Shown here piece after piece: positions 31,109-53,162 of a stretch of 64,000 nt of DNA. The DNA is taken from assembly GCA_903889905.1 (NCBI GenBank), contig CAISZI010000047.1, positions 80,096 through 144,095 of the forward strand. Reading direction: 5' to 3'. This stretch comes from Candidatus Wirthbacteria bacterium. Lineage in GTDB: Bacteria; Patescibacteriota; CG2-30-54-11. The stretch's first letter is position 1; each line of letters opens with the position of its first letter. Under the pieces are notes generated by a model. That model was given only the letters and a program-made list of their open reading frames with translations, made no database searches and was not told the origin of the DNA. The translations under genes and the position numbers were made by a program.

Positions 31109-31120
31109 GGCTTGGCCTTT

Positions 31121-32404: not shown

Positions 32405-32449
32405 GTCGAGTTTGTCTTTTTGATATTTGTTTTTGACGGACGAACAGGG

Positions 32450-33388
32450 TTATTTTTTGCGGACAACCAGGAAAATGCCGACGCCAATCAGGAGCACGCC
32501 GGCGATCACTACGCTGTAAACCAGGATGTCATTGTTTTTGCTGTTCACCACCGTGGCGGTATTTTTGACCGTCACGCTTTGCGCTGAACTGCTCTGCAGT
32601 GTCGATTTGTCCAAGGGCTGGCTCGCAGTCAGGATTTTATTGTCATGACCATAGGCGAGCGAGACGCGGGCGGTATAGGCTTTGGTTTCAAAATCCAAAG
32701 CGTCGATCGCGATGGTTACCCGGCGATCTTTGCCAGGGAAAACATTGACGCTGTCCACGCTGTAGGTTTCGGCGACCGAGCCGTTCAACATCAAATCGAT
32801 TTTGCCGGAAACCGTGGTGTGCACATTGCCGGGGTTATGTAAAACCAAAGTAATGTCTTTGGTTGTTGGCACAATCTGGCTGAGTTCCATTTTTTCGGTT
32901 GGGCTGCCAATGACCACAGAATAGAGCGTCTGCAGTTGTTGCTTAGTCTGGTTGGAGCCACCGCTCTGCTGGCCGGAAATCGTGGTGATCGCCGTCACAT
33001 AATAACCTTGCGCGGTCGTATTTTTGGGAACTGTCACCGTGACTTTGACATCTTTGGAAGCAGCTTTGGCCAAGGTGAACGCCGCGCTGTCAGTACCAAA
33101 CCAAGCCGCTGGATTGGCGGTCGTGGGAGTGGTGAGTTCGGTTGGTGAACCACTGTCATCGACGGTAAATTCCTTGAACGTGACCGTAAAATCCTTAATC
33201 TCGGCGGTGTTGTTCTGAATTTTCAAAATCAAACTTTTGATATCTCCGGCGTTGGCTGTAACCGTTTCCTTGATGGGATCGATCAAAATCGCTTCCGCTG
33301 CAGCCCTTGCCCCGCTCACGACACTCCCCATGGCCACGAACATCGCCACTGCGGTTAGGCCAAGGCTGAGAGGTTTACTCAATTTCAT
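32450..33388 (-). CDS. DUF916-like (CscA-like) cell-surface protein: signal peptide, beta-rich ectodomain, C-terminal TM anchor plus RKK
   Basis: Signal peptide MKLSKPLSLGLTAVAMFVAMGSVVSGARA; C-terminal VYSVVIAGVLLIGVGIFLVVRKK. This topology matches the DUF916 partner proteins of WxL clusters. The DUF916 assignment itself is inferred. Confidence 0.5.
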   Translation of the reverse strand: MKLSKPLSLGLTAVAMFVAMGSVVSGARAAAEAILIDPIKETVTANAGDIKSLILKIQNNTAEIKDFTVTFKEFTVDDSGSPTELTTPTTANPAAWFGTDSAAFTLAKAASKDVKVTVTVPKNTTAQGYYVTAITTISGQQSGGSNQTKQQLQTLYSVVIGSPTEKMELSQIVPTTKDITLVLHNPGNVHTTVSGKIDLMLNGSVAETYSVDSVNVFPGKDRRVTIAIDALDFETKAYTARVSLAYGHDNKILTASQPLDKSTLQSSSAQSVTVKNTATVVNSKNNDILVYSVVIAGVLLIGVGIFLVVRKK

Positions 33389-33442
33389 TTTTGTCTCCAG
33401 GTAGGTGAGATTTGTTTTGGGTGCTGCAGTGCGTCGCCAGGA

Positions 33443-34597
33443 CTAAAAGATTGGCTTGGCGATAAAGGTAATTGTATTGGCATAGTTACCCGAAGGCTGC
33501 AGGTTGTTCGTTTCCAGTTTGAATGTTACATCAGCGCGATCTTGACCGTCAACATCACTCTGTGTGGCATGACCATGATAAAGCACTTCAGATGAAGTAG
33601 CCGTGAGTCCTGCCCAGGTATCCGCATCGGTAAAACGGTCAGCCGTGCCCACACCCAATGTCGCGTCGCTGGTGTGGTAACCAAGGAACCCGGTATCCAC
33701 CCCGATCGTTGTCCCGGCAGGAATCGCCCAGGCAACAGGAGCGGCATTGGTGCCAACCAGAGTGTTTTTGATCGGGTCAATATCAATTGTCGCGTCAGCA
33801 CTGTGCTGCATGTTGTGATCCTGTTTGACGTAAACCGTGAAACCCTGCTTGGCGTCAGTATTGACCTTGAGGCGCATAACAGCGGTTTTGGCAACACCAG
33901 GGGTCACTTCGCGCCATTCAATGAAGTTGGGGCCAATAGTGCCACCCGCAGGAGCGGTCTGCCCAGCCACGGAAAAAGTCATCTGGGGTTTCTGTGAACC
34001 ATAAATGTCAACATGTTCGATGGTGGCGACCAGAATATCAATCGTATCAATGGTGGCACTAGTGCCATCCTGGGAGGTCACATCAACATTCCAAATATCC
34101 GCCGTGCCGGTTGCGGCGACTTTGGCCGGGTTCAAGATCTGATGCGTGCCACCCGCATTGGTTCCAATCTCAATCGTGATAGCTGACGCTGCAATCACCG
34201 TATCTGTGTCATTATTGGTCAGGGTGATGCTGCCGCTTGTGCCAGAAACAATATCCACGCCCCAGGCTGAATCCGCGCCGGTGCCTGGAGTTGCTGCCAG
34301 AGTTTGTGCCGTGACACCGAGTTTCAGACTGATGTCGCCAAACACCAATCCAGCAGGAATGCTGAATTTGGTGGCTTCCGGTGTAATCACCAATTTCCCG
34401 TTTACCGGGATTGTCTGTACCGTCGTGAATTTTAGTGTCCAGTCTGACGCTGTCGACGGATTGGAATCACTGAGCTCGAGGGAAGCCGCGTTGAACTGAT
34501 ACTGCACCGCGTGGGCAATGTTGGTAAATGGGATCATTGCCAGCACGAGGGTGCAGGTCATGGCCCAAGATAGCCATTTTTTGTTTTGCAGGTTCAT
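33443..34597 (-). CDS. secreted protein (384 aa) with C-terminal WxL-like domain
   Basis: Signal peptide. C-terminal ~110 aa are homologous to the 1447-aa protein C-terminus and end GNYANTITFIAKPIF, comparable to the WxL pattern G.Y....W.L...P. Confidence 0.6.
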   Translation of the reverse strand: MNLQNKKWLSWAMTCTLVLAMIPFTNIAHAVQYQFNAASLELSDSNPSTASDWTLKFTTVQTIPVNGKLVITPEATKFSIPAGLVFGDISLKLGVTAQTLAATPGTGADSAWGVDIVSGTSGSITLTNNDTDTVIAASAITIEIGTNAGGTHQILNPAKVAATGTADIWNVDVTSQDGTSATIDTIDILVATIEHVDIYGSQKPQMTFSVAGQTAPAGGTIGPNFIEWREVTPGVAKTAVMRLKVNTDAKQGFTVYVKQDHNMQHSADATIDIDPIKNTLVGTNAAPVAWAIPAGTTIGVDTGFLGYHTSDATLGVGTADRFTDADTWAGLTATSSEVLYHGHATQSDVDGQDRADVTFKLETNNLQPSGNYANTITFIAKPIF

Positions 34598-37235: not shown

Positions 37236-37317
37236 AAAACCCCCTGTATCATTAGACCGGATGAAATAGTACCGACAGATCGGGCCCGCTGCGCCGCGGG
37301 CCCGACCAGCCTGAAAT

Positions 37318-40300
37318 TTACTTGACGGAAGATTTTCGTTTTTTGAGGACGAGGAACAAGCCATAGGCAGCAATCACGGCAAGCACGATCAGGATGACCA
37401 CGCTGAGGTTGGTACCCGTACCAGCCAGGACTGAGACAAAGGGAGCGGTCGTGGTGGCGCTCAGGACCTGAGGTACCGTCACCATGACGGTCGCAGAAGC
37501 ACTCGCCGTCCAGCTGCCAGAAGTCGCCGTGGCAATGTTGGTGTAGTAACCAGCCAGGTTGGCTGACTTGGTCTGATAGGTGACAATGATGTTGTGACCA
37601 GCGGCAAGGTTGAGGCCTGACCAGGTGATGCTACTGGCGGTTGTGTTGACCTGGGGCTCAGCAGCGGTACCGGCGACGTTGGCAGAACCGGCAACATAGG
37701 CAAATCCAGGTGGAAGAATATCTTGCAGAGTGAAAGTAATTGCGGCATTACCATTATTGCTGACAGAAACCGTATAGCTGACATTGTTGCCATGGACAAC
37801 GGTTGTCACATTGGCGGCTTTACTGATCAAGAGCGGATTGGGTGTCGGTTGCGTCGGTGGTGTCACAACGGTCACGGTCGCATGGGCTGTATCGAAGGGA
37901 CTCCCCTGAATGTCGGTGAGCGAAGCCAGGTTGGTATAGGAACCGGCTGCCGCGGGAGCCAAAGTTGTGTATGTAACAATGGCAGTGGTATTGGCGGCCA
38001 GATTAACTCCTTGCCAGACCAGGTAAACTCTACCATTAACGGTTGACTGCTGGGGAACGGCGGCTTGTCCGTTGATCTGCGCCTGACCGGCATAAGTGAA
38101 GCCAGCGGGCAAAAGATCAGTGATGAACAGATTGGTGGCATTTTGGGCAGTGGAATTTTTGAGCGTCAAGGTGTAAGTGATGACCCGGTTGGTGTCGCTA
38201 TCCGTGCTGTTAACCTGGGTTGGGCTGGCCACTTTGGTCAGGGACAGGTTAATCAGTTTGACGGTCGTGGTGTCACCATAAGTGTTGGTCATGGTGAGAT
38301 CACCATTGGCTGGCCAGGTGCTGAAGTCTTTGACAGTAACTTCGAAGCGACGGGTAACCGTGGCATTGGCGGCAAGGTCGGCAGCGGCCCAGCTGATCTT
38401 TTCGATCACACCATCTTGATTGACATCGGTCGTTGTGAAGGCAGGATCGGTGGTGACGACTTTGCTAAAGTTGCCGGCATAACGCGTCAGATTGGAGACA
38501 TCATCGGTAAAGACAAAGCCAGGAGCAACGTTGCTGCTGTGATTGATGGCAGTCAGGGTATAGACGAGCTGATCACCGGCGCGCAGGGCGCGATTCACGG
38601 CTCCCCCATCAACGAATGAGACAGCTTTATGCAATTCAATGGAACCAACTGGAACCTGGGTCTGGTTTCCAAAAACGTTGCTCATGATGAAGTTGCCGGT
38701 GGTGGGCAGCGGATTTTTGACCTGGACCTGGAAGGTGCGAGACGCTGAACTTCCGGCATTGATTGTGCCGATCGTGGGCCAGACCACGGAATTATTGACC
38801 AGAGTACCACCGTCGGAAGCGGTTTTGAAGTCGGCATAGGTCAGCACATTGCTGATCTCATCCATGAATTTGTAATTGACGGCTGTGCCATCACCTGAGT
38901 TGCTGACTTTAAGGGTGTAGGTAACGATATCGCCAGCCTGGGCTGTGCTCGATTGGGCATCTTTGTTCTGTGTGGTGTTGAAAGCGGATTTGGACAGGAC
39001 CAGATTGCTCAGCGGGACATGGATGGTGATGGTTGTTTCACCATGATATTCCTGATTCTGAAAGGTGAAGGAAGCGACGTTTTTGACCAGATCGCCTTCT
39101 TTGAACCCATCGGCTTTGAGCACGGCATCCAGCGTAAAGACTTCGGCATTGTTTTCGGAGGTGCCGGCTTTGACGGTGATTTGCTGAGTCTGATAGTCAG
39201 TGCCAATGTATTTGGTACCATTATTGTCAGCATCCTGATTGAGTACGCCGATTGAAGCATACTGGGTGGCGTCAAGCACATCATTGACTGTAAGCGACAA
39301 GTCGCCGTTGCCCTCGTTCCAGACCAGGACTTTGTATTCAACCGTAGCGCCGGGGATGGCATTGACTTTGTCAAAGAAATTTTTGCCATCGAGGCTGACG
39401 TATTTCTTGATCGCGGGTTTGGGTGACAGGACAACGTTGACTTTGACGATGTTGCTGGGGACATTATTGGCCCAAACCTGGTTGGTGAGGCTCATGGAAT
39501 TGCCGGGGAACGGCGATTTGACCACCGCCTGAATGGTGAAGGATTCAGTCTGACCGACATCGAGGTTGGTGAGGGTCATGTTGTCCCAGCTGCCCACAAA
39601 CGCTTTGCCATCGGCATCGCTGTCGGCGTTATTCACGCCAATGTTGGTGAAGTAGGTGTCGCGGCCCTGCAGGGTGTCGGTGACGTTAACGGAAGGAATG
39701 GCGACATAACCATTGTTGATAACTTCAATTTTGTACTGGAGTTGATCGCCAGGAGCGGCAGTTACATTGTCCACCACCCAACCGGAATTGGTAGTGAGAT
39801 TGCGGACATATTTGGTGACCTGCAGGCTGGGGGTCAGGCTGACTTTGACCACGGCTTTGTCTTCGGCCAGCACATTGAGGGTACGGGTCTGCAAAGCGCG
39901 GGCAATGTTTTCGTTGCTGGTTTCGTTTTGATAGAAACTGGGACGGATCTGTGCTTCGATCAAGTAGGTGCAACCCGTGCACATATTGGCAGGATTGGTG
40001 GCGTCAGAACTACCGGCTGGCACAAGAAGCCCCTGAACAAGCGCGATGGTGCTGTCATGATAGGTGGAAGCAAAGTAGGTGGCAGTCAGCACGTCGCCAG
40101 TATTGGTGTGTTTGTAGACTTTGAGCTGATCATAGATGCGTTGGGGTGAGGTGAAGTCAACCACGTCGGACAGGTTCACGGTTTCGCCCAGCTGGCCGGG
40201 ATTGGAAACCACGACGCGATAGGTGACCCAGGTGTCGTTGGACGTGTGATCCAGAAGCAAAGTTTTGGTCCAGGCATTGCCGGAAGCAATCTTGCCTTCT

Positions 40301-43300
40301 TTGACATCTTTGGTGATCTGGACGTTGGCCGCTTTGACAGCATTGACGTTCACGATCGCGGTCGACGTATCCTGGAGTTCGGCACCGATCAAGACTTGGG
40401 CCGTATTGGTGAACTGCGTGTCAGTTTTGACCGAGGGTGCTTTGGCGCCAATGGAAATGATGATTGATCCACCTTTGACCAATTTGAAGCCGTCATTGTT
40501 GTTGGGCCAGACATAGGTGGTGCTGTTGTAGGAACTGTTGTAACTGCTTACCGGGGTCATCAATAACTGGCTGGTGACATTGCCGCTGCCGTCTTTGATG
40601 GTGATTTCGGCGCGTTTCACTACTTGTGAGTTACCAATCTGTTCCATCATTGCGGTGAAGCCAGGTGGCAGGACATCTTTGACAAAGACGTTGGTCTCGT
40701 CGCGTCCGCCATTGTTATTCACTTTGATTGTCCAATCGGTTTCGCTCAAACTTTCAACGGTCTGGTTGCTGGGCGATTTGAGGATGCTGAGGGAAGTGGT
40801 GGGTAGCGGTTCTACCATAACCGTGGCTTCGGCAATATTGCTTTGTCCGCCAATGAATTTGGCCTGGGCACGATTGATGTAGGACGTTGCGACGGTTGGA
40901 TTGACGTTAACGAGGGCGTTGAAGACGATCTGGATCTGCTGGGACTGATTGGGTGCCAGGTTGATGGCATGGCCATAATTGTCCTTGGTCCACCAGAGTT
41001 CAACGGTCTTGGCGGGATCAAGTGCGGTGCAGCTGTATGACTGGTTGACTTTGTCCCAGGCGCAGGGGCCGGTAGGGTGTTGCTGCGTGATGCCAGAGGT
41101 AACACCTGCATAGGTAAACAAGGGGCCACTCGCGTCCTGTGGCAAGAAGTCGACGATGGCGACGTTATTGGCTGTGTGATTACCGTAGTTGGTGGCGGTG
41201 ATGGTGAATTTGATCTGTTGACCAAAACTGGTGGTCTGGGAATCAACAACTTTGGTAACCCGCACATCAGGTGAAACAATTTTGACCGTGATGGTATCGC
41301 CATAAGTGTTGGTCATAGTGTTGTCATGGTTGGTCTGGATATCGCCAGCTTTGACATAAAAGATGTAGCTGATCGTCTGACCGGGAGCAATATCAGGATT
41401 GTTGCCTTTGACCAGGGTGAGCTCCGAGCCGCTGCCCTGGATTACGCCTTCGCCCAGTTTGACGTTTTCGCTTTCGGTCCAGGGGCTGTTCACGTCATCC
41501 ATGACCTGGGAAATATTGTCGCTGAAGATAAAGCCGTGCATGGGTGCGCTGCCGGTATTGGTGGCGGTCAAGGTGTACTTGATCCAGTCGCCGGGATTGG
41601 CGGGGTTGGTTTCAGGATCCATTTCACGATCGGGTGTTTCGATCCAGGCATATTTGTGGAGCACAATATTGGGATTGGCGTTGATATTGAGCACCGCACT
41701 GGATTGTTTGACTTTGCTGCCATAGGCGACCTGGGCCATGTTGTTGACAATGGTCGTGCCGGACTGGAGCATATCGGCTTTGACTTTGGCCGTCAGGGTA
41801 TAAGTAATGCTGGAACCAGGCGCAAAGTTCACGTTACCCGTGCTGCTCAAAACAATCGGATTCGGGATTGGCTGGGTGTAGGTGTGGGTGTAGTTATTGG
41901 GACCGCTTACGGTGATGGAATCAAACACCGAGACATCGGGGTTGCCATTGATGGACATGAGGTCGGTAACAGCGCCCGTTTCGGGTGCGGTGCCAGAGTT
42001 ACCCACCTTGATCTGGTAGTAAGCGGTGTCGCCAGCTGAGACGAGAGCGCTGCCGCTATTCGTGCTCCAGCTCGGGCTGCTGCTGACGAATTTATTGATC
42101 CACATGTCAGAATCGACAACGATGTCACTGTCCACGGCGTGGTTGTTGGCGGGATTGACATCACGGGGAGAGGCATTGATGACATCGGCCAGATTGTCGA
42201 TGGAAGTTCCGGCCGTGACAGAAGATTTGAGTTTGATCGTGACTTGTGCAGTTGCGGTCTGGCCCAAAGGCAGATCAAAGGCTGACCAGAGGATCTGGCC
42301 GTTGGTATTGCTGACTACAGGATAAGAATGCGTCCCCAATGTAATGCTGGTAGCAGTCGCTGTATCCAGAAGGGAAGCGGCAGGAAGTGTGTCGGTCAGG
42401 ACAACGCCCAGGGCGGTCGTGGTACCATTGGAACCATCGTTGGTGATCGCAAGGGTATAAGTCGTGCTCGCGCCGGGAAGCAATGTCGTGACGCCGTCGT
42501 CTTTGGTGACTTTGACGTCCACGCGGGGCGAACTGACATAAACCACGGCGCTGGAGGAGCCAATCAATTTATCGTTGATCGATGCCGTAGCGGTATTGGT
42601 GTAACCAGTCGTCAAACTTTCGGCAATCGCGGCAGGAACATTAACCGGATAATTAATCGTCAGGGATGAACCAGCGGGCAGAAAGGAAGGAGTGCCGCAA
42701 GTCCAGGTGACGCTCTGGCCGCTCACGTTGGTGGCGCAGATCACGGTGGTGCTGCCGACTTTGGCAACGGTGCTGCCATCCACATAACTAAAGACATGGC
42801 CATTGCTGTCCTGGGGCAGGTTGTCGGTGACGATAACCTTGTCGCCGGCAACGTTGCTGGTGCTGTTGTTGGTCACGGTCACAGAGTAGTTCAAGACTTT
42901 GGCGTGGACGGTATCGGTATCCATCTGATAGCTGCTCGTTCCCTCTACAAGCTTGTTGATCTTGCCGGAAAGGCGAGTACCCACGTCAACCCAGGCACAG
43001 CTGACACCAGGGATCGCGTGAACATCACTGCCGTCTATAACCACCGTCGAGGCACAGTTCTGAAGACCATGACTGCCCGTTCCTGGTGGCTGGCTGGCGC
43101 TTACCTTGGTGCCGAAATAAAAAGTTACATTATGCCCGCTGAAATTGCTCGGTTGCACTACCCATTCCACCGTCGTGTCATGTTTAACCGTTTCCGCTAA
43201 ACTCACACCCGATGTCACAATTTGTCCCAAACCGCCATAGCTTGTGTTGGCTGGTAAAAGATCCGAAATCAATAAGCCGCCGAGTCCGACGGAACCTATT

Positions 43301-46300
43301 TCGGTAACACTAATCTTCCAGATCGCGTTATCACCAGGCATGACCAACGGATTAACTGCTGTTTTGGTAATCACGATATCCCGTACCGGGACATTAACGG
43401 TCTTGCCCTGAAACGAATTGGTCATCACATAGTTTGACGTACAATTCAGGCCGGCGCCAACCCCAGTGCTGATGGAACAAACTGGCCAGGTATCGGATGT
43501 GTTGATCACGACCACGAAGGATTCGGTAATCGTCTGTCCGGCGGGTATGGTTTTGGTTCCCCAACTGATCGTATTGCCATTAACGGTGCCATTATCCGAA
43601 ATTGACAATATGTGCGCGAATTGGAGAACACCGCCAATGTCGTCACTGAAGACAAAATTGGGATAATCTGCTTTACCTGTGGTCTCGGTGACGGTTAAGG
43701 TGTACTGCACCGGATAATAGGGATAAAGCGGATGATCTGCGCCGGCGATAATGGTTGAATTGGGCAGTGTTGCCGTTTTGTTAAAGCTGAGGTTGGGAAC
43801 GAAGTGGCTGACATAAACCACAGCGCTGGCTGAACCAACGGATTTGGTGACAGTGGAAGTACTGATCGTTGCCGTGGCGGTATTGGTGTAGCCAACTGTC
43901 AGGTTATTGGCAATCGCGGCAGGCACGCTGACCTGATAATTAATCGTCAGGGTAGCTCCAGCGGGCAGAAAAGAAGGAGTTCCGCAAGTCCAGGTGACGC
44001 TCTGGCCGCTCACGTTGGTGGCGCAGATCACGGTGGTGCTGCCGACTTTGGCAACGGTGCTGCCATCCACATAACTGAAGACCTGGCCATTGCTGTCCTG
44101 GGGCAGGTTGTCGGTGACGATAACTTTGTCGCCGGCAACGTTGCTGCTGCTGTTGTTGGTCACGGTCACGGCATAGTTCAACACTTTGGCGTGGACAGTG
44201 TCCATTTCTATCTGATCACTGCTCTGGCCTTCAACTTGCTTGGTTATGTTTCCTGTCAATCTGGTGCCAACGCCCACTTTGGCGCAGCTTTGGTTGGAGG
44301 TATAGCCATCGTCCGCAACCACGGCGCAGTTCTGGAGGCCGTTCGTCTGCACCACGGGAGGCTGACTGGCATTCACTTTGGTGGCAAAGAAGAAACTAAC
44401 GCTCTGCCCGCTGTAGGTGCTCGGCGCAACCGTCCAGGTGACGGTGTTGTGGGCGGCATCCAGGGATTCACTCAGTGAAATATTGGGTGTCACAATCTGA
44501 CCGAGCATGGCATAAGTCGTGCCAACGGGGAAAGTATCTTTGATCTGCGCGCCGCCCATGCCCATATTTCCGATTTCTGTGGCGGTGATTTTCCAGATGG
44601 CGTTGTCGCCAGACAGGACCGTGGGGTTGACCACGGTTTTGACAATGACCAGGTCACGCAGTGGCACATTGACTGTGACACCGTGGAAATTATTGGTCAT
44701 GACAAAACTGGAGGTGCAGCTCGTGCCGCAACCAACCCAGGTATTGGAAGGATTGACAACGACTTTGAATGTTTCGGTCATGGTCTGACCAGCCGTAATC
44801 GTGCCGCTGCCCCAGCTGATTGTGGTTCCAGCCACAGTGCCGGTCGGTGAAATGGCGGTTACGTTGGCGTATTTGAGGATATTGCTGATGTCATCGCTAA
44901 AGTCAAAGTTGGAATAATCCGCCTTACCTGTGGTTTCGCTCACGGTCAAGGTATAGAGCACGGTGTCGCCGGGGTAAGCGGGATGCAAGGCATCGGGTGT
45001 ACCGGTTTTGCCACCCGCAAATTGCGCTGTTTTGTTAAAGCTGAGGCTGGGGACGTAGTGATTGACATAAACATTGGCCGAATCCGTGGCGGTTTTGGTG
45101 ATGGAAGCGTAGCTGCCAGTGGCGGTCACAATGTTGTAAATGTCGGCGGTGACATTGAGTTTGACTTTGGTATAAGACTTGAAAGCACCATTGGTCAGAT
45201 TAAAAGTCGGAGCACTGTCAAGGTTGCCCAACTGGTCGTCAATAACGGAAACATTTGTCAGGGGTACGTTCCCGTTATTGGTAACTGTGTAACAATAGGT
45301 GACGGCTGTGCCGGAATCCACATGAACTTGTTTGACGAGTTGGCCATTTGCATCCAGTGGGCAGGAGGAAACACTACCCACGGCCACAGTTTTGACCACT
45401 GTGATCGAGGGTGCCGGGGAAACGGTGACACAGACAAAGGCTTTGTCAGTCGCCGACAAATTGCGGGCATTGCTTGTGCCAGGAATGGTAAAGGTGGTGG
45501 TGGCGGTGACAACGTTTTTGATCACCTGAGGACTCACGTTCATGGTCTGCGATTTGCTCAAGGGCTGGCTGGCACCTGCGGCAAGGGAGGCGATGGTGCC
45601 GATATTGCCCAGTTTGTCATCGTTCACCAGGACGTTGGTCAGGGTGACGTTGCCAGGATTGGTGACCTGATAGCAGTAAGTGACGGTTGAACCTTGAATG
45701 ATATTAAACGGATTATTGACGTCAGTCGCTATGCCAGGGCACTGGCCATTGTTGGAAACGGTTTTGACGATCGAAAGCTGAGGATTATCAACAATGATAC
45801 TGGCCGAAGCAGTCACTGTGCCATTGTTGTCGGCAACAGCAGTCGCGGTATTGGTGTAGGAATCGTTGTGCGTTGCGCCGGCGGTGCTTGCATTACCGGT
45901 TACGGTCACGGTACGGCTGCTATTGGGATTAACGTCGCCGAAGTTGCAGCTGATCGCATTACCCGTGCCCGAACAGGCGCCAGAATAGTTTGTGTTCGTA
46001 AACTGGCTGGGAATCGTGTCGGTCAAAACCACGTTATGGGCCAACCCCAGACCATTATTGGTGAGGGTGATTGTAAACTGGATGGCGTCGTTCAAGAAAA
46101 CTTCAGGAGTCGAAGTCGTTTTGGTAATGGCGAGAATAGGAATCAAGACGTGAACATTGGCGGTAGCTTGAATTTCACTGACCTGGTCAGCATGGGTTCT
46201 GGCAACGTTGGTGGAATCCTGTGCAACGCTGGCTTTACCTGTAACCGTGATGGTATGGCTGGTTCCGGCATTCATACTACCAAAATTGCAAATCACTGAA

Positions 46301-48588
46301 TTTCCGGTGACGGAGCACCCAGTGCCAGTCACAGCCACATTGCTGATCTGGCTGGGCACATCATCATTCAAGACAACATTGTTGGCAGTTACGGTACTGG
46401 TATTGTTAACCGTAATGTTCCAACTGACATTGTCTTTAAAAGTAACCGTTTGGTTGGCGGGTGTTTTGGTAATGCTGAGTGTAGGCAGTACCGGAGTATT
46501 TTTGACCAGAAGAATCAAGGTCTGGGTCTGACCGTTGGCAATTGTCACGCTTGGAATACATCCCCCTGTAGTCCCACAAATACCGGTGATATCGCTGTAG
46601 TTGGCTGCGAGTCCACCCATGTTTTGATAAGTATAAGTACCCAGTGCCACGTTAGCGGCAGTGCCTTTACCATTGACAATGGAAACTGGGGATGAAAGCC
46701 CATTCACGTTCACACTCAAATTGCTAGCCGTGTAAAAGGTATCCCCCTGACTGATCATGTTGTCGTTGTTATCGTCCTGATAGACTTCCACTTTCACGTT
46801 GCCCACCTGGGGAGGTGCGGCATTCACGGTAATATTGGCAGTATCGCTAACTGGTGAAGTCTCGGTGGCTGTAGCAGTTGCGGTATTGGTTGCATTCCCT
46901 GCGGTGTTTGCGGTTCCACTCACAGTGATGGTTTTGGTCTGACCGGCGGTCAGTGTCCCGACCGGAATCGAAATATTGTTATTTGAACCACTATAGTCGC
47001 CGCTGTAGGAAACAGCATTGACAAAGTTGGGTACACTGTCGGTCAAGGTCACATTGGTCAAGGTTCCGGTGCCGGCATTTTTGACGGTGACTGTCCAGGG
47101 ATCAACCGTCTGTCCAACAGTTTTCGTCTGGTTCTTGGCATCGCCGACGCTGTCATTCTTGGTCACAACCAGATTGAACGTTGGTGCTGGGTTGACGCTA
47201 ATGTTAGCCGAATCGCTGACTGGCGAAGTCTCGGTGGCTGTAGCTGTTGCGGTATTGGTTGCATTCCCTGCGGTGTTTGCGGTTCCACTCACGGTGATGG
47301 TTTTGGTCTGACCGGCTGTCAGTGTCCCGACCGGAATCGAAATATTGTTATTTGAACCACTGTAATCGCCGCTGTAGGAAACAGCATTGACAAGGTTGGG
47401 TACGCTGTCGGTCAAGGTCACATTGGTCAAGGTTCCGGTGCCGGCATTTTTGACGGTGACTGTCCAAGGATCAACCGTCTGTCCAACGGTTTTCGTCTGG
47501 TTCTTGGCATCGCCGACGCTGTCGTTCTTGGTTATGGACAAAGAATAAGTCGGTGCAGCCACCACATTCACAATGCCCGTATCGGTATAATACTTCGTTC
47601 CGCCAACCGTTTCTGTGGTCGGGCCGCCCGGGATGTTGTCGATGTTGTAGCAAGTCACGCCGGCTTTATTATTCAGGGTTCCGGTAGCACCAGCGGCAAT
47701 GGTCATGTCAAAATTCTGGTTAACAGTAGCTCCCGGAGCGATATTGCCAATTGTACGAGTTGTGGAACCTTCGACAAACTTGCCGGTCTCGGGCCAGTCG
47801 ACCAATGTGCAGGTGTAAGCGCTGCCCTGTGCTCCGGTCGTATTGTTGGTAATGGAAACGGGGAAACGCACCACATCGCCGGCAGTAATCGTGCCGGTGC
47901 CGTCTTTGTCAGTCAGCAGTGTACCGTCGCCCTTGTTGATGGTCAGATTGGCGGCAAAAAACTGGTATTGTTCACCATCCGTATTGGCGTGTTGATTGGT
48001 GTAACCAGTATAAGAATAGGTCCATTTGGAATAATTACGCAAAATCGTGCCACTAGCCAGATTGGCATTAGGCTGAAAGGTCATACGGACACTCAACACC
48101 TGATTCTTGGCAAGATTTATTGAACCCGATGCTGGCCAGGTTGCCATTGTTCCGGAAAAAGCCCCAGTTCCCATATTTTCAGATCCTGCCGGGCAACGTT
48201 GTGCATACAATACATTATTGCTGTCATAAACATTTTCCAAACTGCCATAGTCGCAACGCAATACTTCCAAAGCCTGGATATTGCGTGCGCCAGTGTTCAA
48301 CGATGCAGTGCCTGCTAGCGCAGTTGCAAGTCCAGTATCAGTCAAATCAACCAAACCTGAGACGCTAGTTAATTCCATACTGGCCGAACTGGGCGAGATC
48401 GCATAATAAGTCGCGGTATTGGCAGCATTGTTGTCCCGTTCCCATTTGGTAGTTTGCACAGCTGCGCTAACCGGGGAAGCGCTGATGTTGATAAAGGGCA
48501 CAATTTGATTGAGAATAACTGCCAACGACAAAACCACGCCCAGTTTTTTGCGTGGATTATGTACGAATCGGCTGAATATGTTAGTCAT
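37318..48588 (-). CDS. giant (about 3756 aa) cell-surface adhesin-like protein with DUF11-type conserved repeat domains and C-terminal LAXTG-type sorting signal
   Basis: Signal peptide (start MTNIFSRF with GGAGG RBS). Dozens of DUF11/TIGR01451-like repeats (TKxVxxxTAxxGDTVTYTITVTNxG...). C-terminus ...VLAGTGTN-LSVVILIVLAVIAAYGLFLV-LKKRKSSVK is a LAXTG motif plus hydrophobic stretch plus basic tail. Confidence 0.85.
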   Translation of the reverse strand: MTNIFSRFVHNPRKKLGVVLSLAVILNQIVPFINISASPVSAAVQTTKWERDNNAANTATYYAISPSSASMELTSVSGLVDLTDTGLATALAGTASLNTGARNIQALEVLRCDYGSLENVYDSNNVLYAQRCPAGSENMGTGAFSGTMATWPASGSINLAKNQVLSVRMTFQPNANLASGTILRNYSKWTYSYTGYTNQHANTDGEQYQFFAANLTINKGDGTLLTDKDGTGTITAGDVVRFPVSITNNTTGAQGSAYTCTLVDWPETGKFVEGSTTRTIGNIAPGATVNQNFDMTIAAGATGTLNNKAGVTCYNIDNIPGGPTTETVGGTKYYTDTGIVNVVAAPTYSLSITKNDSVGDAKNQTKTVGQTVDPWTVTVKNAGTGTLTNVTLTDSVPNLVNAVSYSGDYSGSNNNISIPVGTLTAGQTKTITVSGTANTAGNATNTATATATETSPVSDSANISVNPAPTFNLVVTKNDSVGDAKNQTKTVGQTVDPWTVTVKNAGTGTLTNVTLTDSVPNFVNAVSYSGDYSGSNNNISIPVGTLTAGQTKTITVSGTANTAGNATNTATATATETSPVSDTANITVNAAPPQVGNVKVEVYQDDNNDNMISQGDTFYTASNLSVNVNGLSSPVSIVNGKGTAANVALGTYTYQNMGGLAANYSDITGICGTTGGCIPSVTIANGQTQTLILLVKNTPVLPTLSITKTPANQTVTFKDNVSWNITVNNTSTVTANNVVLNDDVPSQISNVAVTGTGCSVTGNSVICNFGSMNAGTSHTITVTGKASVAQDSTNVARTHADQVSEIQATANVHVLIPILAITKTTSTPEVFLNDAIQFTITLTNNGLGLAHNVVLTDTIPSQFTNTNYSGACSGTGNAISCNFGDVNPNSSRTVTVTGNASTAGATHNDSYTNTATAVADNNGTVTASASIIVDNPQLSIVKTVSNNGQCPGIATDVNNPFNIIQGSTVTYCYQVTNPGNVTLTNVLVNDDKLGNIGTIASLAAGASQPLSKSQTMNVSPQVIKNVVTATTTFTIPGTSNARNLSATDKAFVCVTVSPAPSITVVKTVAVGSVSSCPLDANGQLVKQVHVDSGTAVTYCYTVTNNGNVPLTNVSVIDDQLGNLDSAPTFNLTNGAFKSYTKVKLNVTADIYNIVTATGSYASITKTATDSANVYVNHYVPSLSFNKTAQFAGGKTGTPDALHPAYPGDTVLYTLTVSETTGKADYSNFDFSDDISNILKYANVTAISPTGTVAGTTISWGSGTITAGQTMTETFKVVVNPSNTWVGCGTSCTSSFVMTNNFHGVTVNVPLRDLVIVKTVVNPTVLSGDNAIWKITATEIGNMGMGGAQIKDTFPVGTTYAMLGQIVTPNISLSESLDAAHNTVTWTVAPSTYSGQSVSFFFATKVNASQPPVVQTNGLQNCAVVADDGYTSNQSCAKVGVGTRLTGNITKQVEGQSSDQIEMDTVHAKVLNYAVTVTNNSSSNVAGDKVIVTDNLPQDSNGQVFSYVDGSTVAKVGSTTVICATNVSGQSVTWTCGTPSFLPAGATLTINYQVSVPAAIANNLTVGYTNTATATISTSTVTKSVGSASAVVYVSHFVPNLSFNKTATLPNSTIIAGADHPLYPYYPVQYTLTVTETTGKADYPNFVFSDDIGGVLQFAHILSISDNGTVNGNTISWGTKTIPAGQTITESFVVVINTSDTWPVCSISTGVGAGLNCTSNYVMTNSFQGKTVNVPVRDIVITKTAVNPLVMPGDNAIWKISVTEIGSVGLGGLLISDLLPANTSYGGLGQIVTSGVSLAETVKHDTTVEWVVQPSNFSGHNVTFYFGTKVSASQPPGTGSHGLQNCASTVVIDGSDVHAIPGVSCAWVDVGTRLSGKINKLVEGTSSYQMDTDTVHAKVLNYSVTVTNNSTSNVAGDKVIVTDNLPQDSNGHVFSYVDGSTVAKVGSTTVICATNVSGQSVTWTCGTPSFLPAGSSLTINYPVNVPAAIAESLTTGYTNTATASINDKLIGSSSAVVYVSSPRVDVKVTKDDGVTTLLPGASTTYTLAITNDGSNGTTTALGVVLTDTLPAASLLDTATATSITLGTHSYPVVSNTNGQILWSAFDLPLGQTATAQVTIKLKSSVTAGTSIDNLADVINASPRDVNPANNHAVDSDIVVDSDMWINKFVSSSPSWSTNSGSALVSAGDTAYYQIKVGNSGTAPETGAVTDLMSINGNPDVSVFDSITVSGPNNYTHTYTQPIPNPIVLSSTGNVNFAPGSSITYTLTAKVKADMLQSGTTIVNNMAQVAYGSKVKQSSAVLNINANPNIVLHKYAWIETPDREMDPETNPANPGDWIKYTLTATNTGSAPMHGFIFSDNISQVMDDVNSPWTESENVKLGEGVIQGSGSELTLVKGNNPDIAPGQTISYIFYVKAGDIQTNHDNTMTNTYGDTITVKIVSPDVRVTKVVDSQTTSFGQQIKFTITATNYGNHTANNVAIVDFLPQDASGPLFTYAGVTSGITQQHPTGPCAWDKVNQSYSCTALDPAKTVELWWTKDNYGHAINLAPNQSQQIQIVFNALVNVNPTVATSYINRAQAKFIGGQSNIAEATVMVEPLPTTSLSILKSPSNQTVESLSETDWTIKVNNNGGRDETNVFVKDVLPPGFTAMMEQIGNSQVVKRAEITIKDGSGNVTSQLLMTPVSSYNSSYNSTTYVWPNNNDGFKLVKGGSIIISIGAKAPSVKTDTQFTNTAQVLIGAELQDTSTAIVNVNAVKAANVQITKDVKEGKIASGNAWTKTLLLDHTSNDTWVTYRVVVSNPGQLGETVNLSDVVDFTSPQRIYDQLKVYKHTNTGDVLTATYFASTYHDSTIALVQGLLVPAGSSDATNPANMCTGCTYLIEAQIRPSFYQNETSNENIARALQTRTLNVLAEDKAVVKVSLTPSLQVTKYVRNLTTNSGWVVDNVTAAPGDQLQYKIEVINNGYVAIPSVNVTDTLQGRDTYFTNIGVNNADSDADGKAFVGSWDNMTLTNLDVGQTESFTIQAVVKSPFPGNSMSLTNQVWANNVPSNIVKVNVVLSPKPAIKKYVSLDGKNFFDKVNAIPGATVEYKVLVWNEGNGDLSLTVNDVLDATQYASIGVLNQDADNNGTKYIGTDYQTQQITVKAGTSENNAEVFTLDAVLKADGFKEGDLVKNVASFTFQNQEYHGETTITIHVPLSNLVLSKSAFNTTQNKDAQSSTAQAGDIVTYTLKVSNSGDGTAVNYKFMDEISNVLTYADFKTASDGGTLVNNSVVWPTIGTINAGSSASRTFQVQVKNPLPTTGNFIMSNVFGNQTQVPVGSIELHKAVSFVDGGAVNRALRAGDQLVYTLTAINHSSNVAPGFVFTDDVSNLTRYAGNFSKVVTTDPAFTTTDVNQDGVIEKISWAAADLAANATVTRRFEVTVKDFSTWPANGDLTMTNTYGDTTTVKLINLSLTKVASPTQVNSTDSDTNRVITYTLTLKNSTAQNATNLFITDLLPAGFTYAGQAQINGQAAVPQQSTVNGRVYLVWQGVNLAANTTAIVTYTTLAPAAAGSYTNLASLTDIQGSPFDTAHATVTVVTPPTQPTPNPLLISKAANVTTVVHGNNVSYTVSVSNNGNAAITFTLQDILPPGFAYVAGSANVAGTAAEPQVNTTASSITWSGLNLAAGHNIIVTYQTKSANLAGYYTNIATATSGSWTASASATVMVTVPQVLSATTTAPFVSVLAGTGTNLSVVILIVLAVIAAYGLFLVLKKRKSSVK
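42350..44930 (-). repeat. about 1.29-kb coding repeat unit present twice inside the giant gene (cores about 42600-42960 and about 43890-44250 are nearly identical)
   Basis: Long identical DNA stretches seen directly, e.g. aatcgcggcagg...ccgcaagtccaggtgacgctctggccgctcacgttggtggcgcagatcacggtggtgctgccgactttggcaacggtgctgccatccacataact in both copies. Confidence 0.7.
46842..47579 (-). repeat. tandem direct repeat, 2 x about 369 bp (123 aa), about 97% identical, inside the giant gene
   Basis: Copy A about 46842-47210; copy B about 47211-47579. Encodes duplicated TFNLVVTKNDSVGDAKNQTKTVGQTVDPWTVTVKNAGTGTLTNVTLTDSVPN... modules. Confidence 0.8.
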
Positions 48589-48648
48589 GCAACCTCCCTG
48601 ATAAAGCAGATAAAATCTAGGTAAAAAAGTAGAAAACAACTTTCAGGT

Positions 48649-48672
48649 GCATCAATATGCACCAAGGTTATT
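48649..48672. promoter_or_regulatory. perfect palindrome GGTGCAT-N4-ATGCACC upstream of the giant gene (operator-like)
   Basis: GGTGCATCAATATGCACC lies about 60 nt upstream of the giant-gene start codon in an AT-rich spacer. Confidence 0.4.
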
Positions 48673-48691
48673 TGTTTTTATTTAAGACTAT

Positions 48692-48720
48692 ATTTTAACT
48701 TATTTATACTATTAAATCAA
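48692..48720 (-). promoter_or_regulatory. sigma70-like promoter for the giant gene
   Basis: Minus-strand TTGATT, 17-nt spacer, TAAAAT in the AT-rich 48640-48750 spacer. Confidence 0.35.
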
Positions 48721-48749
48721 ACAACTAATATAATTATTTAAACTATCTG

Positions 48750-51700
48750 TTATCCATTTGGCCTCTGTCCATCACCTGCTGAACGAATAACGGGAGCCGG
48801 TGGCGGCTGACCATCTCCAGGTGGGCGAATATCGGGAGGTGGCAGCTGACCATCGCCAGGTGGGCGAATCACCGGAGAACTACCGCCAACAGGCGTAGAC
48901 GGATGGTTAACAATGCTCTCAAACGGCGCAACTGACTGCAAAGTCTTGGGATCCTGGATATACCACGCCGCTTTGTCCGCTTTCCAGACTAACTGAAATT
49001 GCCACCGGGCACCGTCACGTACTGGAGAAAATTCGCGACCGGCACCCAGTGCAGTTGGCATGCCAAAACTAGGATTGTTAGCATCCTCGCGTAGCAAAAG
49101 CGTTGCTCCATCCTTGATATTACCCGTTCCAGAGTCAATGAATTCTGGCGGAACCGTGGTACGATCCGGGATACCCGAAAGTCGTCCGCCATTGACATCA
49201 AGCGACGCAACCGTCTGGCCGGCGTAGCCACCTTTGAGAATCGCTTCACCCAAATGGTGATTGTATCCCATGTCTACAGGTTTATGTGTGACAGGACTTT
49301 CCATCAGTTTAAAGAAGGCCACTTTCTCGTTTTCCACGAATTGGCCAGCATTCGCACATTTGTTGGCTGCAATTTCTAACACTGTTTCTACCTTACCATT
49401 CTGGCCAACTTTGGCTAGGACAGTAATGACATCGCCTTCCTTCCAGTTGGCATCTGACACAGAGAGACCACCTGCCTGGTCATAGGTAGCATTGTTGGCC
49501 ATCATCCCATGACGCGGAATCTCAAACCCGGGATAATGCTTTGAAAATTCACCAACAGTTAATGTTTCAAAGGAAAATTTAGTGTCCCCAGCATCGTCAA
49601 AGCGACCATTGCCATTCGTGTCCACTGCATAGAATTGTTTACCAGCGATCATCTCAAGCTTCTTAAAATTCCCATTGGCAATGGCTTCAATCATACCTGG
49701 CGCTTTGACACCCGCCGCCGCGCGGAACAACTCTGCCATATAAGCCCAGTCCTGACGGTCTCCAGCACTTGCCTGTGCAATGGTTTCAGGGGTACTGGCA
49801 TGATTCGCCGTAAATGTTCCCGGAGCTGTCTGCCCTTTGGGAAGGTTGCTCAAAACGGCTGTAGCTGCGGCTTTTTCCAGGATTGCTGGATGGTTTGCCG
49901 CTACGGCACTGATATCAACAGACTTTGTTGCAGCAGGTGCTGCCACGACAAGGGGTTCAACTCCCCTACCCACGTCAGCTTTCACAGATACACCCGTCAC
50001 CTCCACTAAATTGCTATTTAATATTATGGGGTCATTGGAAGAATTAAGACTTCGAGAAGGATCTCCAATATCATTGTGAGAAATCGTCAACGCACCGAAT
50101 TGCAATTCAATATTGCCATTGGGATAGATATGGATACAGGTAGGATCGAGGACAAACTTGTCACCCGGATAGACATTGCCTTCGACACGCTGGAACTGCG
50201 TGGTTAATGCGGCGGTCAAGGTATTGACATTCATGTCCTTGAATTCAGGAATATTTTTGACCAGGTCTTTGGCAATGTTGGAGGATTCAGACCAAAAGCT
50301 GTCACCCGGGTGCGCCGTAGATTCAAATGTCTGGAGACTAGACTTGTTCCCAGATGTAATTTGCACTCTTAATGAGTTATCAGCAATTGCCTGACTTAAC
50401 TGGGTATCATTTATCCCGGTACCGTTCGTATGTTTGACCATCACGGTGACTTTGGCAAAATCCACGATGACATGGCCGTCATTACCAACGGTGACGGCAT
50501 CATTAGCAATACTTAAACCAACCTTATCCCCAGCATTAACCGTAATTTTTTGATCAGTAGCCAATCTGACAAGCATGTTCGTCAATTCATCAAGCTGAGC
50601 TATTCGAAGATTCAATTTAGGAAGATCAGGGGTAGATTCATCAAGGAGCTTAGTAATGACATCTCTGATAGTCAGGGTCGCATCACCAGAAGCAGTTGTA
50701 TTGATCTCAATATAACTAAAAATTTTGTCAGGCGGCTGTTGCCCTGCCTGTTCGAAATGGTCAACCTTGATCGGAGAATTCAGCTTGCCGCCGCTGCTGC
50801 TGCGCGCGCGACTGGCCAAATCAGATATTGCTGTGTCGGTTATCGTCGCATGCTGAGCCACTGACTGCTCCACAACCACAGTTCCACTAGGATGGGTTGA
50901 GGTGCTGGCCTGCGCGGTTGCGATCAGGTGTTCGGCTCCGGCGACTACTTTGCCGGCGACAAAATTGGCGCCCATAGCGATTTCGGTCCTGATTCCCTGC
51001 ACCAGCGGTGTATTCATCACCAGGCTTCCGACGGTACGGCTGGCCGCAGTGGCGATACCGGTAATCCCGGCTTTAATCAGGACGTTTTGGAGTATGGACG
51101 AATTCATGCGCTTTTTGGCCTCACTGACATTGTCCTGTGCCGCTGGCATGGCCTCGGCAATTAAATCTCTGGCCGCCACGATAGCCTTGGCCTGATCAAC
51201 GGCTGAATCGCCTCGACGTAATTGATTGATCAATAAATTGCCAAAAAAGGATGCTTTGTCTTCAATGCCCATAATTTGGGCTTCGGCCACAAGTTGAGCC
51301 AATTTTAGCGGGGTTGTTCCGTCATTGTGATCCAAAGCACCGAAACGTTCATCCAAACGGCCGGCAAAAGCCATCTGTTCAATTTGCATGGCCTCTACGC
51401 CACCGGCATTCCCGGCAGTTCCGATCGACGCCACTGCGCGGGCTCCTGAGACCACTCCCCCCACTGCTCCCAGCGCAAAAGAACCGGACATGACAAGGTT
51501 TGATCCTCTCAGCCATTTTTCACTTTTAACGAATTCCATCACCTGTTTGACGCCATCGCTGCTGACAACTCTTTGGGCGATCGCCGCAACTTTGGCCACC
51601 AAGTCCTCTGGTTGAGAATCCTTTTTGTTGTCGGTGACTGCATGCCGCAACATTGTCAACATGACTGCTTCGGCACGCGCCCGGACCATTTTATCTACGT

Positions 51701-53162
51701 TCAGATTAGCGCCCTGCAACTTATCTGACATGCCGTTCATGATATCGGTCAATGCCGTGTTGTAAGCGATAATCAATCGCGGCAGCTGCTCGGCATTATC
51801 CAACCCAGCCCGTAAGTCATGGATGGCCGGCTGCAGTTTACGTTCGATGATTTTGTCGATCATCTTGGCGGCAGCGGCATTGGGGTCACGTTCAAAAGCG
51901 TCATGGGCCTCAGCAGCTTTGTTACGGTCAAGGTTGGTCGCCACGGCCAGCTGCGTGGACACGGTTTCAATACCGATCTTGCGACCGCTAAAGCTGACAC
52001 TTCGTGATGTCCCCATGACCGACGAGACACCGAAATTGAAATTCCGTAAATTCTGTTGAAAACGATCCTTGCTGAACATACCTCTCGGATCAAAGGCATT
52101 TTTGGTGCTGAAATCCGCGGGCACATAAGCCATGACATCTTTATTCGCAAAAAAGCCGGTCAAAGACCCGCCGTGCTGTAAATGCTGTTTCAAATCGGCA
52201 TGTGTTTCCACCATAGCCAGCAGCATCCCCACAAAGTCCAATCCGCCCATTTCCACGGTACGTTTATTGACCGTCATCTCGGCCATGTCAGCCTGACGCC
52301 CCATGATACGGCTGGCAAATTGCACCAGGCGGCTTTTGGGTTGATTACTCTCCACAAGCTCATCGTTGACCAAGGACTTCAGTTCGGCTTGCCATTTGCT
52401 GACCTGTTGCTGGGTGCGAACAGCGGCATCTGCGGCTATGGCCATTTCGACTTGATGTTTGGTGCCGGAATACGACACCATCCGGTCGTAGCGAAGCACA
52501 TCAAGCTTTCCCGCCAGGGTTGTCGCCTGAGGACGGTTTTGCTCGGCGAGTTGCTCTACCACTCTGGCAACATGTTTGCCCGTTTCGCCGATTTCGATTT
52601 CCTGTGCAGCATTTCTGGCACGTTCATCCAGGCGATCATAGGCTTCAAACCTGCGTCGTTCGGAACGAGGCCTCTTACTTTCGTGTGGAGCCTGATTTCC
52701 GTCCAGACCATCGGTATCAGCCGTGAGTGCTGTGTCGTTGATCATGATGTCCCGGCTGCGAATCTGGATACCTTGACGAGGATTTGGATCCAAATTGACA
52801 ACAAAAGTTGTCTCAACTTTAAAATTCCGTTCATGCCTGCTTTGCAAATAAGCAACCAACGCCAAAACTAGGGTTGTCTGGATCTCCTGTTCGGTTCCAG
52901 CTCTGTTCTGCCCGTGGACTTGATCCATGATTGCCTGCGTCAAGACCTCGGCAACGCGTTGCGGGCCGGCTTTTTCACGCAACCTATAGGGTACCTGCAT
53001 TTTTTGAGGTTCATATTCGAATATTTGCTTCCCAATAGATTCATCCCGCCTGCTTCCGCCCCCGACACCTGTGTACATTACCGGTAGGCTTCCCCTGCCG
53101 CGAATTTCGGGAAACACCATAGCCGAGGCGTCATATCTTGAAAGTGTCATATTTCCCACCAT
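48750..53162 (-). CDS. very large (1470 aa) orphan hypothetical protein without N-terminal signal peptide; Gly/Ala-rich amphipathic segments and C-terminal IRPPGDGQ(P)PP repeats
   Basis: Long uninterrupted ORF with no recognisable catalytic motif. Three tandem PPGDGQ repeats at the extreme C-terminus. Central G/A-rich hydrophobic stretches (GSFALGAVGGVVSGARAVASIGTAGNAGG; ITGIATAASRTVGSLV). Confidence 0.7.
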   Translation of the reverse strand: MVGNMTLSRYDASAMVFPEIRGRGSLPVMYTGVGGGSRRDESIGKQIFEYEPQKMQVPYRLREKAGPQRVAEVLTQAIMDQVHGQNRAGTEQEIQTTLVLALVAYLQSRHERNFKVETTFVVNLDPNPRQGIQIRSRDIMINDTALTADTDGLDGNQAPHESKRPRSERRRFEAYDRLDERARNAAQEIEIGETGKHVARVVEQLAEQNRPQATTLAGKLDVLRYDRMVSYSGTKHQVEMAIAADAAVRTQQQVSKWQAELKSLVNDELVESNQPKSRLVQFASRIMGRQADMAEMTVNKRTVEMGGLDFVGMLLAMVETHADLKQHLQHGGSLTGFFANKDVMAYVPADFSTKNAFDPRGMFSKDRFQQNLRNFNFGVSSVMGTSRSVSFSGRKIGIETVSTQLAVATNLDRNKAAEAHDAFERDPNAAAAKMIDKIIERKLQPAIHDLRAGLDNAEQLPRLIIAYNTALTDIMNGMSDKLQGANLNVDKMVRARAEAVMLTMLRHAVTDNKKDSQPEDLVAKVAAIAQRVVSSDGVKQVMEFVKSEKWLRGSNLVMSGSFALGAVGGVVSGARAVASIGTAGNAGGVEAMQIEQMAFAGRLDERFGALDHNDGTTPLKLAQLVAEAQIMGIEDKASFFGNLLINQLRRGDSAVDQAKAIVAARDLIAEAMPAAQDNVSEAKKRMNSSILQNVLIKAGITGIATAASRTVGSLVMNTPLVQGIRTEIAMGANFVAGKVVAGAEHLIATAQASTSTHPSGTVVVEQSVAQHATITDTAISDLASRARSSSGGKLNSPIKVDHFEQAGQQPPDKIFSYIEINTTASGDATLTIRDVITKLLDESTPDLPKLNLRIAQLDELTNMLVRLATDQKITVNAGDKVGLSIANDAVTVGNDGHVIVDFAKVTVMVKHTNGTGINDTQLSQAIADNSLRVQITSGNKSSLQTFESTAHPGDSFWSESSNIAKDLVKNIPEFKDMNVNTLTAALTTQFQRVEGNVYPGDKFVLDPTCIHIYPNGNIELQFGALTISHNDIGDPSRSLNSSNDPIILNSNLVEVTGVSVKADVGRGVEPLVVAAPAATKSVDISAVAANHPAILEKAAATAVLSNLPKGQTAPGTFTANHASTPETIAQASAGDRQDWAYMAELFRAAAGVKAPGMIEAIANGNFKKLEMIAGKQFYAVDTNGNGRFDDAGDTKFSFETLTVGEFSKHYPGFEIPRHGMMANNATYDQAGGLSVSDANWKEGDVITVLAKVGQNGKVETVLEIAANKCANAGQFVENEKVAFFKLMESPVTHKPVDMGYNHHLGEAILKGGYAGQTVASLDVNGGRLSGIPDRTTVPPEFIDSGTGNIKDGATLLLREDANNPSFGMPTALGAGREFSPVRDGARWQFQLVWKADKAAWYIQDPKTLQSVAPFESIVNHPSTPVGGSSPVIRPPGDGQLPPPDIRPPGDGQPPPAPVIRSAGDGQRPNG

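Follow-up and report, generated by a model that had tools for sequence, protein, structure and literature searches.

Fibrillar adhesins with stalks of self-crosslinking domains are the closest described counterparts of the protein considered here. A 2025 survey placed DUF11, DUF7507, DUF7927, DUF7933, and DUF7619 among the CnaA-like isopeptide domains, in which the bond is intramolecular and a Lys/Asp/Asn triad is present; DUF11 was renamed CLIPPER and DUF7507 was renamed CLIPPER_2, and one CLIPPER domain has been crystallized (9IFR) (PMC12617251). We analyzed a 64-kb stretch of a single metagenome-derived contig (CAISZI010000047.1), referred to below as the window, in which a minus-strand gene at positions 37318 to 48588 (stop codon included) encodes a protein of 3756 amino acids (aa) with the layout of such an adhesin. 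The interpretation that we favor, with a probability of roughly 0.7, is that this is a Sec-secreted, wall-anchored fibrillar surface protein with an isopeptide-domain stalk and a monocistronic gene.

The initial annotation of the gene as encoding a 3756-aa DUF11-repeat protein was borne out when the translated open reading frame (ORF), which was intact, was scanned against Pfam and NCBIfam. DUF11 (PF01345) matched 15 stretches (E value, 8e-142), DUF7507 matched 6 (2e-30), and DUF7927 matched 4 (4e-20), with weaker matches to DUF7619 and DUF7933. Among the NCBIfam models, TIGR01451 matched 14 stretches (1.5e-89) and TIGR04226, named "isopeptide-forming domain-containing fimbrial protein," matched 4 (116.7 bits). 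An iterative hidden Markov model (HMM) built from the protein's own repeats recognized 24 domains between aa 368 and aa 3668, leaving a nonrepeat N terminus of ca. 350 aa and a gap of ca. 160 aa at aa 555 to 717.

These results divide the protein, all of whose features lie on the minus strand, into several parts. By inspection, aa 1 to 42 (48463 to 48588) form a Sec-type signal peptide in which the n-region has RKK, the hydrophobic core of 18 residues is LGVVLSLAVILNQIVPFI, and cleavage is likely between SPVSA and the following Ala. A nonrepeat domain without detectable relatives, the presumed ligand-binding tip, occupies aa 43 to 347 (47548 to 48462) and is followed by two tandem 123-aa DUF11 domains (46810 to 47547). 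The next ca. 107 aa (aa 594 to 700; 46489 to 46809) form a beta-rich spacer domain that is not DUF11-like, which fell within the gap left by the own-repeat HMM and had only subthreshold Pfam matches. The remainder of the stalk (aa 701 to 3710; 37459 to 46488) was resolved with Pfam, NCBIfam, and the own-repeat HMM into ca. 22 more CnaA-type immunoglobulin (Ig) domains of the DUF11, DUF7507, DUF7927, DUF7933, and DUF7619 families. The mature protein would have ca. 3683 aa and a mass of ca. 385 kDa, is acidic (isoelectric point, 4.9), and is rich in Thr, Val, Asn, and Ser.

The putative isopeptide chemistry of the stalk was evaluated with two adjoining DUF7927/TIGR04226-type domains (aa 3192 to 3315 and 3316 to 3446; 38251 to 39015). 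Lys, Asp, and Asn were invariant in all five paralogous DUF7927-type copies, the other three of which are located at 44656 to 45060, 43381 to 43806, and 41275 to 41676. The candidate triad in the domain at aa 3192 to 3315 is K3200, D3243, and N3304. An AlphaFold2 model of this domain, made with an alignment of the five internal paralogs, had a predicted local distance difference test (pLDDT) score of 91.3. When the model was searched with Foldseek, the top match in the PDB was the CLIPPER structure 9IFR (E value, 3.9e-4; template modeling [TM] score, 0.56), with AgI/II C-domains and pilin domains ranking next. There was also a weak sequence match to 4OFQ that spanned the candidate Lys and Asp. 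At the sequence level, a motif scan found a triad-like K...D...N signature at 22 of 27 candidate strand-A lysines. Thus, the stalk is predicted to be composed of ca. 24 CnaA-type Ig domains, nearly all of which keep the Lys/Asp/Asn signature. Because most of the domains keep these residues, they probably self-lock by autocatalytic Lys-Asn isopeptide bonds.

The C terminus was as initially described, with LAGTG (aa 3721 to 3725; 37414 to 37428) ahead of a hydrophobic helix (aa 3728 to 3748; 37345 to 37407) and the positively charged tail KKRKSSVK (37321 to 37344). The end of the protein reads ...PFVSVLAGTGTN-LSVVILIVLAVIAAYGLFLV-LKKRKSSVK, or in an alternative division ...APFVSVLAGTGTN, LSVVILIVLAVIAAYGLFLVL, KKRKSSVK, in each case up to the stop codon. 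The isolated tail scored 17.8 to 18.9 bits against the LPXTG_anchor model TIGR01167, for which the cutoff is 15.9 bits, and matched no other C-terminal sorting model. PEP-CTERM, PGF-CTERM, and GlyGly-CTERM sorting were rejected because the tail matched no such model.

When 1.84 billion representative proteins were searched exhaustively with HMMER, with the C-terminal 1200 aa as the query, the identical protein on record (P0006) was recovered, which is a singleton from one 160,035-bp contig in NCBI and ENA. The best non-self match was a 1323-aa fragment from a Joint Genome Institute (JGI) metagenome (P0007). P0007, the only collinear homolog found, can be aligned from ca. aa 2732 of the window protein to its end with 33 to 42% identity, reaching 42% over the last ca. 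320 aa. Its tail reads APFVSVL-STTG-ND, helix, KRRK or, divided differently, APFVSVLSTTGND, helix, KRRKFE. Aligned column by column, the two tails are APFVSVLAGTGTN...AAY...VLKKRK in the window protein and APFVSVLSTTGND...AAY...VLKRRK in P0007, and LAGTG is aligned with LSTTG. The APFVSVL-xxTG segment is among the best conserved between the two proteins, which argues for function. In more distant relatives, the C-terminal end has LATTG, LSATG, LAKTG, [AS]P[KAN]TG, or L[VT]SAG ahead of a helix and basic residues. These comparisons support the assignment of the protein as a secreted protein with a tripartite sorting signal of the LPXTG type.

The initial annotation had attributed the signal to class E sortases. 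The comparison with P0007 upholds an LPXTG-type signal that is aligned over its whole length, but not the class label or the exact motif. The residue at motif position 2, Ala in the window protein, is Ser in P0007 and A, S, P, V, or T among the relatives, and therefore the Ala is not fixed. Class E sortases and LAXTG were defined from Actinobacteria, and a Tyr in the beta3/beta4 loop is the proposed determinant of their specificity (PMC5148588). Assigning the protein to class E from the single Ala residue is thus a guess that is not justified. The conservation in this lineage of a signal that resembles LPXTG but has Ala or Ser at the Pro position does support wall anchoring and a monoderm-type surface biology there, and the Gram-positive-type (monoderm) envelope proposed in the initial annotation is putative.

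A sortase substrate would be unsurprising in the candidate phyla radiation (CPR), in which sortases are common. Sortase genes are present in over half of CPR genomes (PMC6744442), and a Microgenomates genome was found to encode a sortase along with large secreted proteins that have no known function and are up to 2228 aa long (PMC7143001). The only taxon-labeled relative of the adhesin was HDS11524.1 from a Candidatus Wirthbacteria bacterium (35% identity), a weak clue that the lineage is Wirthbacteria or another CPR-like group; a single named genome, CG2_30_54_11, represents that phylum in the taxonomy. The proteins of the window were singletons in a collection of 15 billion proteins. None of 80 loci around relatives of the tryptophanyl-tRNA synthetase (TrpRS) encoded in the window was syntenic with it, and no tRNA or Rfam element was found within the window. 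When the C-terminal 460 aa were used in a word-index search, low-complexity words filled up the list of candidates, so that the matches were all generic DUF11 proteins with at most 32% identity, and a search with the pair of isopeptide domains returned only one short fragment. Scans of a genome collection and a metagenome collection for the adhesin found no relative, a metagenome scan with the ortholog alignment gave no match, and these searches yielded no second strain with which to compare gene length.

The N-terminal tip domain had no Pfam match and no sequence match in the PDB, and no homolog of the N-terminal 370 aa was found among 5.8 billion proteins. An AlphaFold2 model made from the single sequence was all beta but unreliable (pLDDT, 42). 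Its position makes this domain a candidate for binding whatever the organism attaches to. One extension of this idea is that the orphan tip is a module for attachment of a new type, which might bind a host cell, and that, jointly, L[AS]xTG marks a non-actinobacterial sortase specificity (class E-like or of a new class) in a deep lineage, seldom sampled, that is related to Wirthbacteria or the CPR. We consider this combined proposal tentative and rather doubtful.

The stalk includes two internal duplications; at no other repeat offset in the gene did exact matches reach 40 bp. The first is a tandem pair of in-frame 369-bp units at 47547 to 47179 (aa 348 to 470) and 47178 to 46810 (aa 471 to 593). 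The units differ at 34 of 369 positions (90.8% DNA identity), and 114 of 123 amino acids are identical. With BLAST, the identity was 94% over 350 bp. Only a core of ca. 300 bp reached 96 to 97%, and the longest exact run was 62 bp. Twelve differences were found in codons 6 to 112, which form the core of the unit, and 11 of these are synonymous. Nearly exclusively synonymous change indicates that the duplication is real and not very recent and that both copies are under purifying selection.

The second duplication is of a three-domain module (42535 to 45060), with copy A at aa 1177 to 1594 (45060 to 43807) and copy B at aa 1595 to 2018 (43806 to 42535). The two copies are 64.5% identical in amino acid sequence, and BLAST aligned a 1.29-kb unit at 42533 to 43818 with 43808 to 45072 at 68.7% DNA identity. 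A patch of ca. 270 bp (ca. 90 codons) was much more similar. It lies at 43930 to 44199 in copy A (aa 1464 to 1553) and at 42643 to 42912, 1287 bp away, in copy B, with DNA identity of 91 to 98%, protein identity of 90 to 97%, and a longest exact run of 95 bp. In the patch, 9 of 84 codons for identical residues differ versus ca. 55 to 70% in the flanks, and outside it synonymous sites are near saturation. A near-identical patch within a nearly saturated module is the pattern characteristic of recent gene conversion within a gene, and the repeats thus look as if they have recombined by this route. Tandem Repeats Finder, with a maximum period of 500, listed neither repeat. Diversification by a diversity-generating retroelement was rejected because most of the differences are C/T transitions at third positions and not adenine-specific changes and because no reverse transcriptase was found in the window.

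These results require revision of what was first reported for the repeats. The tandem duplication exists, and the ca. 97% identity given for it applies to the core but not to the whole unit. The coordinates are shifted as well, with the 46842 to 47579 interval first given yielding only 89% identity. The unit of ca. 1.29 kb does occur twice, at 42533 to 45072 rather than at 42.35 to 44.93 kb, but it is far from a near-identical kilobase-scale repeat, and the several-hundred-base-pair stretches of identity attributed to it reduce to the single patch. The proposal that the repeats recombine is directly supported by the gene conversion patch. The accompanying warning of assembly collapse now appears weak, because no exact run exceeds 95 bp and the mostly synonymous differences in the tandem core are unlike those of an artifact.

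In the mechanism that we propose, the protein would be exported through Sec, after which the C-terminal helix and the basic KKRK tail would retain it in the membrane. A sortase-family transpeptidase would then cut LAGTG between Thr and Gly and join the Thr to peptidoglycan. The ca. 24 tandem CnaA-type Ig domains would form a rigid stalk that, given the predicted bonds, would be resistant to proteases and force and that might be roughly 100 nm long. It would present the orphan, beta-rich tip of 300 aa, presumably for binding another cell or a surface. The stalk probably grew by internal duplication, with the single-domain tandem being fairly recent and the three-domain module being old, its copies still exchanging sequence through gene conversion. 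Several points weigh against this interpretation. None of the ORFs in the window contained a sortase domain (PF04203) or TLxTC motif, the scan of the complete protein did not list TIGR01167, and the Pfam model Gram_pos_anchor (PF00746) scored 17 to 18 bits, under its cutoff of 20. The Lys-Asn bonds are deduced from motifs and fold, and ligand binding by the tip is presumed from its position. In addition, the lineage and the envelope type are putative, and the best matches to the TrpRS, with 42 to 43% identity, were to a mixture of unclassified, Myxococcota, and CPR genomes.

It is possible to envision the C-terminal helix as a plain membrane tether, with no processing by sortase and with LAGTG being incidental. 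The lack of a sortase within the window and the low PF00746 score are in accord with a tether, as is a neighboring surface protein (32450 to 33388) that ends with a helix and RKK without a motif. However, such a tether is unlikely when APFVSVL-xxTG is among the best-conserved segments in an ortholog that is otherwise 33 to 42% identical, when the tail, scored alone, exceeds the cutoff of TIGR01167, and when many relatives carry xxxTG at an equal distance from the helix. Another suggestion might be that the protein is not an adhesin but a structural sheath, envelope or S-layer-like, in which the DUF11 array itself is functional. DUF11 arrays are known in archaeal envelope proteins and porins (PMC12617251), and the tip has no recognizable adhesin fold. 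This role nevertheless seems improbable, because a signal peptide, a unique N-terminal domain, a long Ig stalk, and a C-terminal anchor are the canonical layout of fibrillar adhesins (PMC12617251), and the gene is single copy in the window, in which no partner lattice genes were identified.

The four TIGR04226 matches might instead indicate a pilin of the RrgB or SpaA type that is polymerized by a class C sortase. However, the protein has no YPK, [YFW]PK, or PK[NDGST] motif anywhere, at 3756 aa is several times the size of a pilin, and has no sortase or other pilin genes adjoining it, so that a polymerized pilin can hardly be entertained. Whether the internal repeats might be an assembly artifact, either a false duplication or a collapsed array of more copies, also has to be considered, because the sequence comes from a single metagenome-derived contig with neither a second strain nor a relative in the genome and metagenome collections for comparison. 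A false duplication would yield identical copies, whereas the tandem units differ at 34 positions, with nearly all of the changes in the core at synonymous third positions. The reading frame is intact throughout, and the longest exact runs of 62 and 95 bp are below typical read length. An artifact is therefore very improbable. A wall-anchored fibrillar surface protein with an isopeptide-domain stalk remains our preferred interpretation.

The gene is real. The minus-strand ORF is open without interruption from 37318 to 48639, and the start at ATG 48588 yields the 3756-aa protein. A Shine-Dalgarno sequence, GGGAGG (48593 to 48598, minus strand), was read directly from the sequence 5 bases ahead of this ATG. 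The AT-rich, 110-bp intergenic region upstream (48640 to 48749, minus strand) contains sigma-70-like hexamers and a hairpin in the 5' untranslated region (UTR). As consensus matches only, seven promoter-like sites were found there versus 1.2 expected from shuffled sequences. The 5' UTR hairpin, at 48646 to 48663, past the promoter-like hexamers but ahead of the ribosome-binding site, is a perfect palindrome with a 7-bp stem (GGTGCAT-CAAT-ATGCACC) that could be a regulatory hairpin or an operator. A GC-rich palindrome of 13 plus 13 nucleotides (37280 to 37305, minus strand), located 12 nucleotides past the stop codon, is terminator-like, with a clean T-run absent.

The listed ORF for the DHH/DHHA1 gene downstream starts at TTG 37373 and overlaps the 3' end of the adhesin gene. 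An alternative start at ATG 37234, with GGGGG ahead of it, is located past the terminator-like hairpin, and the DHH-family gene most likely starts there. With this start there is no overlap, and the adhesin gene looks monocistronic. Directly upstream of the adhesin gene is a 1470-aa ORF (48750 to 53162, minus strand) that matches neither Pfam nor NCBIfam models and lacks an obvious signal peptide. Its C terminus has a proline-rich IRPPGDGQ.PPP repeat that is encoded by a 39-bp tandem repeat (48784 to 48877). The GC content of the window is ca. 51%. GC skew and AT skew flip sign with gene orientation across the whole window, and the coding strand is C rich and A rich throughout. This pattern reflects Thr/Asn/Ser-rich proteins and is not a replication signal.

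Other genes for secreted proteins are found elsewhere in the window. A 1447-aa Laminin_G_3/fn3 protein (25794 to 30137, minus strand) and a 384-aa secreted protein (33443 to 34597, minus strand) share a 158-aa C-terminal domain (48% identity; E value, 5e-46) that ends ...NNLQPSGNY...PIF and belongs to no Pfam family. Genes for a 312-aa secreted Ig-like protein that ends with a helix and RKK, a 427-aa orphan, and a PAS protein lie between them. The genes from 25794 to 34597 look like a surface-protein cluster of unknown type; a WxL/csc-type cluster was rejected because it had no Pfam support. Three paralogous small ORFs of 133, 141, and 146 aa (24198 to 25604, minus strand) lie in a 1.6-kb island with ca. 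40% GC versus ca. 51% for the window. Each encodes an N-terminal membrane helix and conserved Cys-containing motifs, and no Pfam family matched any of the three. A plus-strand gene (20844 to 24185) located just downstream of the TrpRS gene encodes a 1113-aa secreted subtilase (Peptidase_S8) fused to FG-GAP/beta-propeller repeats, with a weak dockerin-like match. A 140-aa PIN-domain (PIN_3) protein is encoded at 54758 to 55180 on the minus strand, and a 93-aa ORF (55158 to 55439, same strand) overlaps its start; the two may be a toxin-antitoxin pair.

With the adhesin, the isopeptide-domain (CLIPPER) fibrillar surface proteins gain one very large and well-delimited example from a lineage almost without sequenced relatives, and the repeats of the adhesin illustrate cleanly, on a small scale, how gene conversion within a gene can follow the duplication of domains. 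These results are useful for annotation and leave current understanding unchanged. The protein is an ordinary representative of an already known type of fibrillar adhesin. Like the DUF11/CLIPPER fibrillar adhesins (PMC12617251; 9IFR), it has the Pfam families DUF11, DUF7507, DUF7927, DUF7933, and DUF7619 with the Lys-Asp-Asn signature, the order of signal peptide, tip, tandem Ig stalk, and sorting signal, and 9IFR itself as the best fold match of its modeled domain. It differs from them in having a tip without relatives, in coming from a rare uncultured lineage, and in having L[AS]xTG in place of LPXTG. The monoderm LPXTG proteins (TIGR01167/PF00746), such as the TIGR01451 repeat proteins of B. 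anthracis and the streptococcal AgI/II C-domains (4OFQ), have the same tripartite signal. The isolated tail of the window protein scores above the TIGR01167 cutoff, and one of the isopeptide domains of the protein has weak similarity to that of 4OFQ, although Ala replaces Pro, PF00746 is below cutoff, and no cognate sortase was seen in the window. The protein shares Ala at position 2 with class E substrates (LAXTG), such as the Streptomyces chaplins ChpA-C, substrates of SrtE1/SrtE2 (PMC5148588), but those were described from Actinobacteria, whereas here the nearest homolog has Ser and the hint of a taxon is Wirthbacteria. The sortase-linked surface proteins of CPR/Patescibacteria offer a further parallel, in that the C termini of short relatives of the window protein have [AS]P[KAN]TG or L[AS]xTG ahead of a helix.

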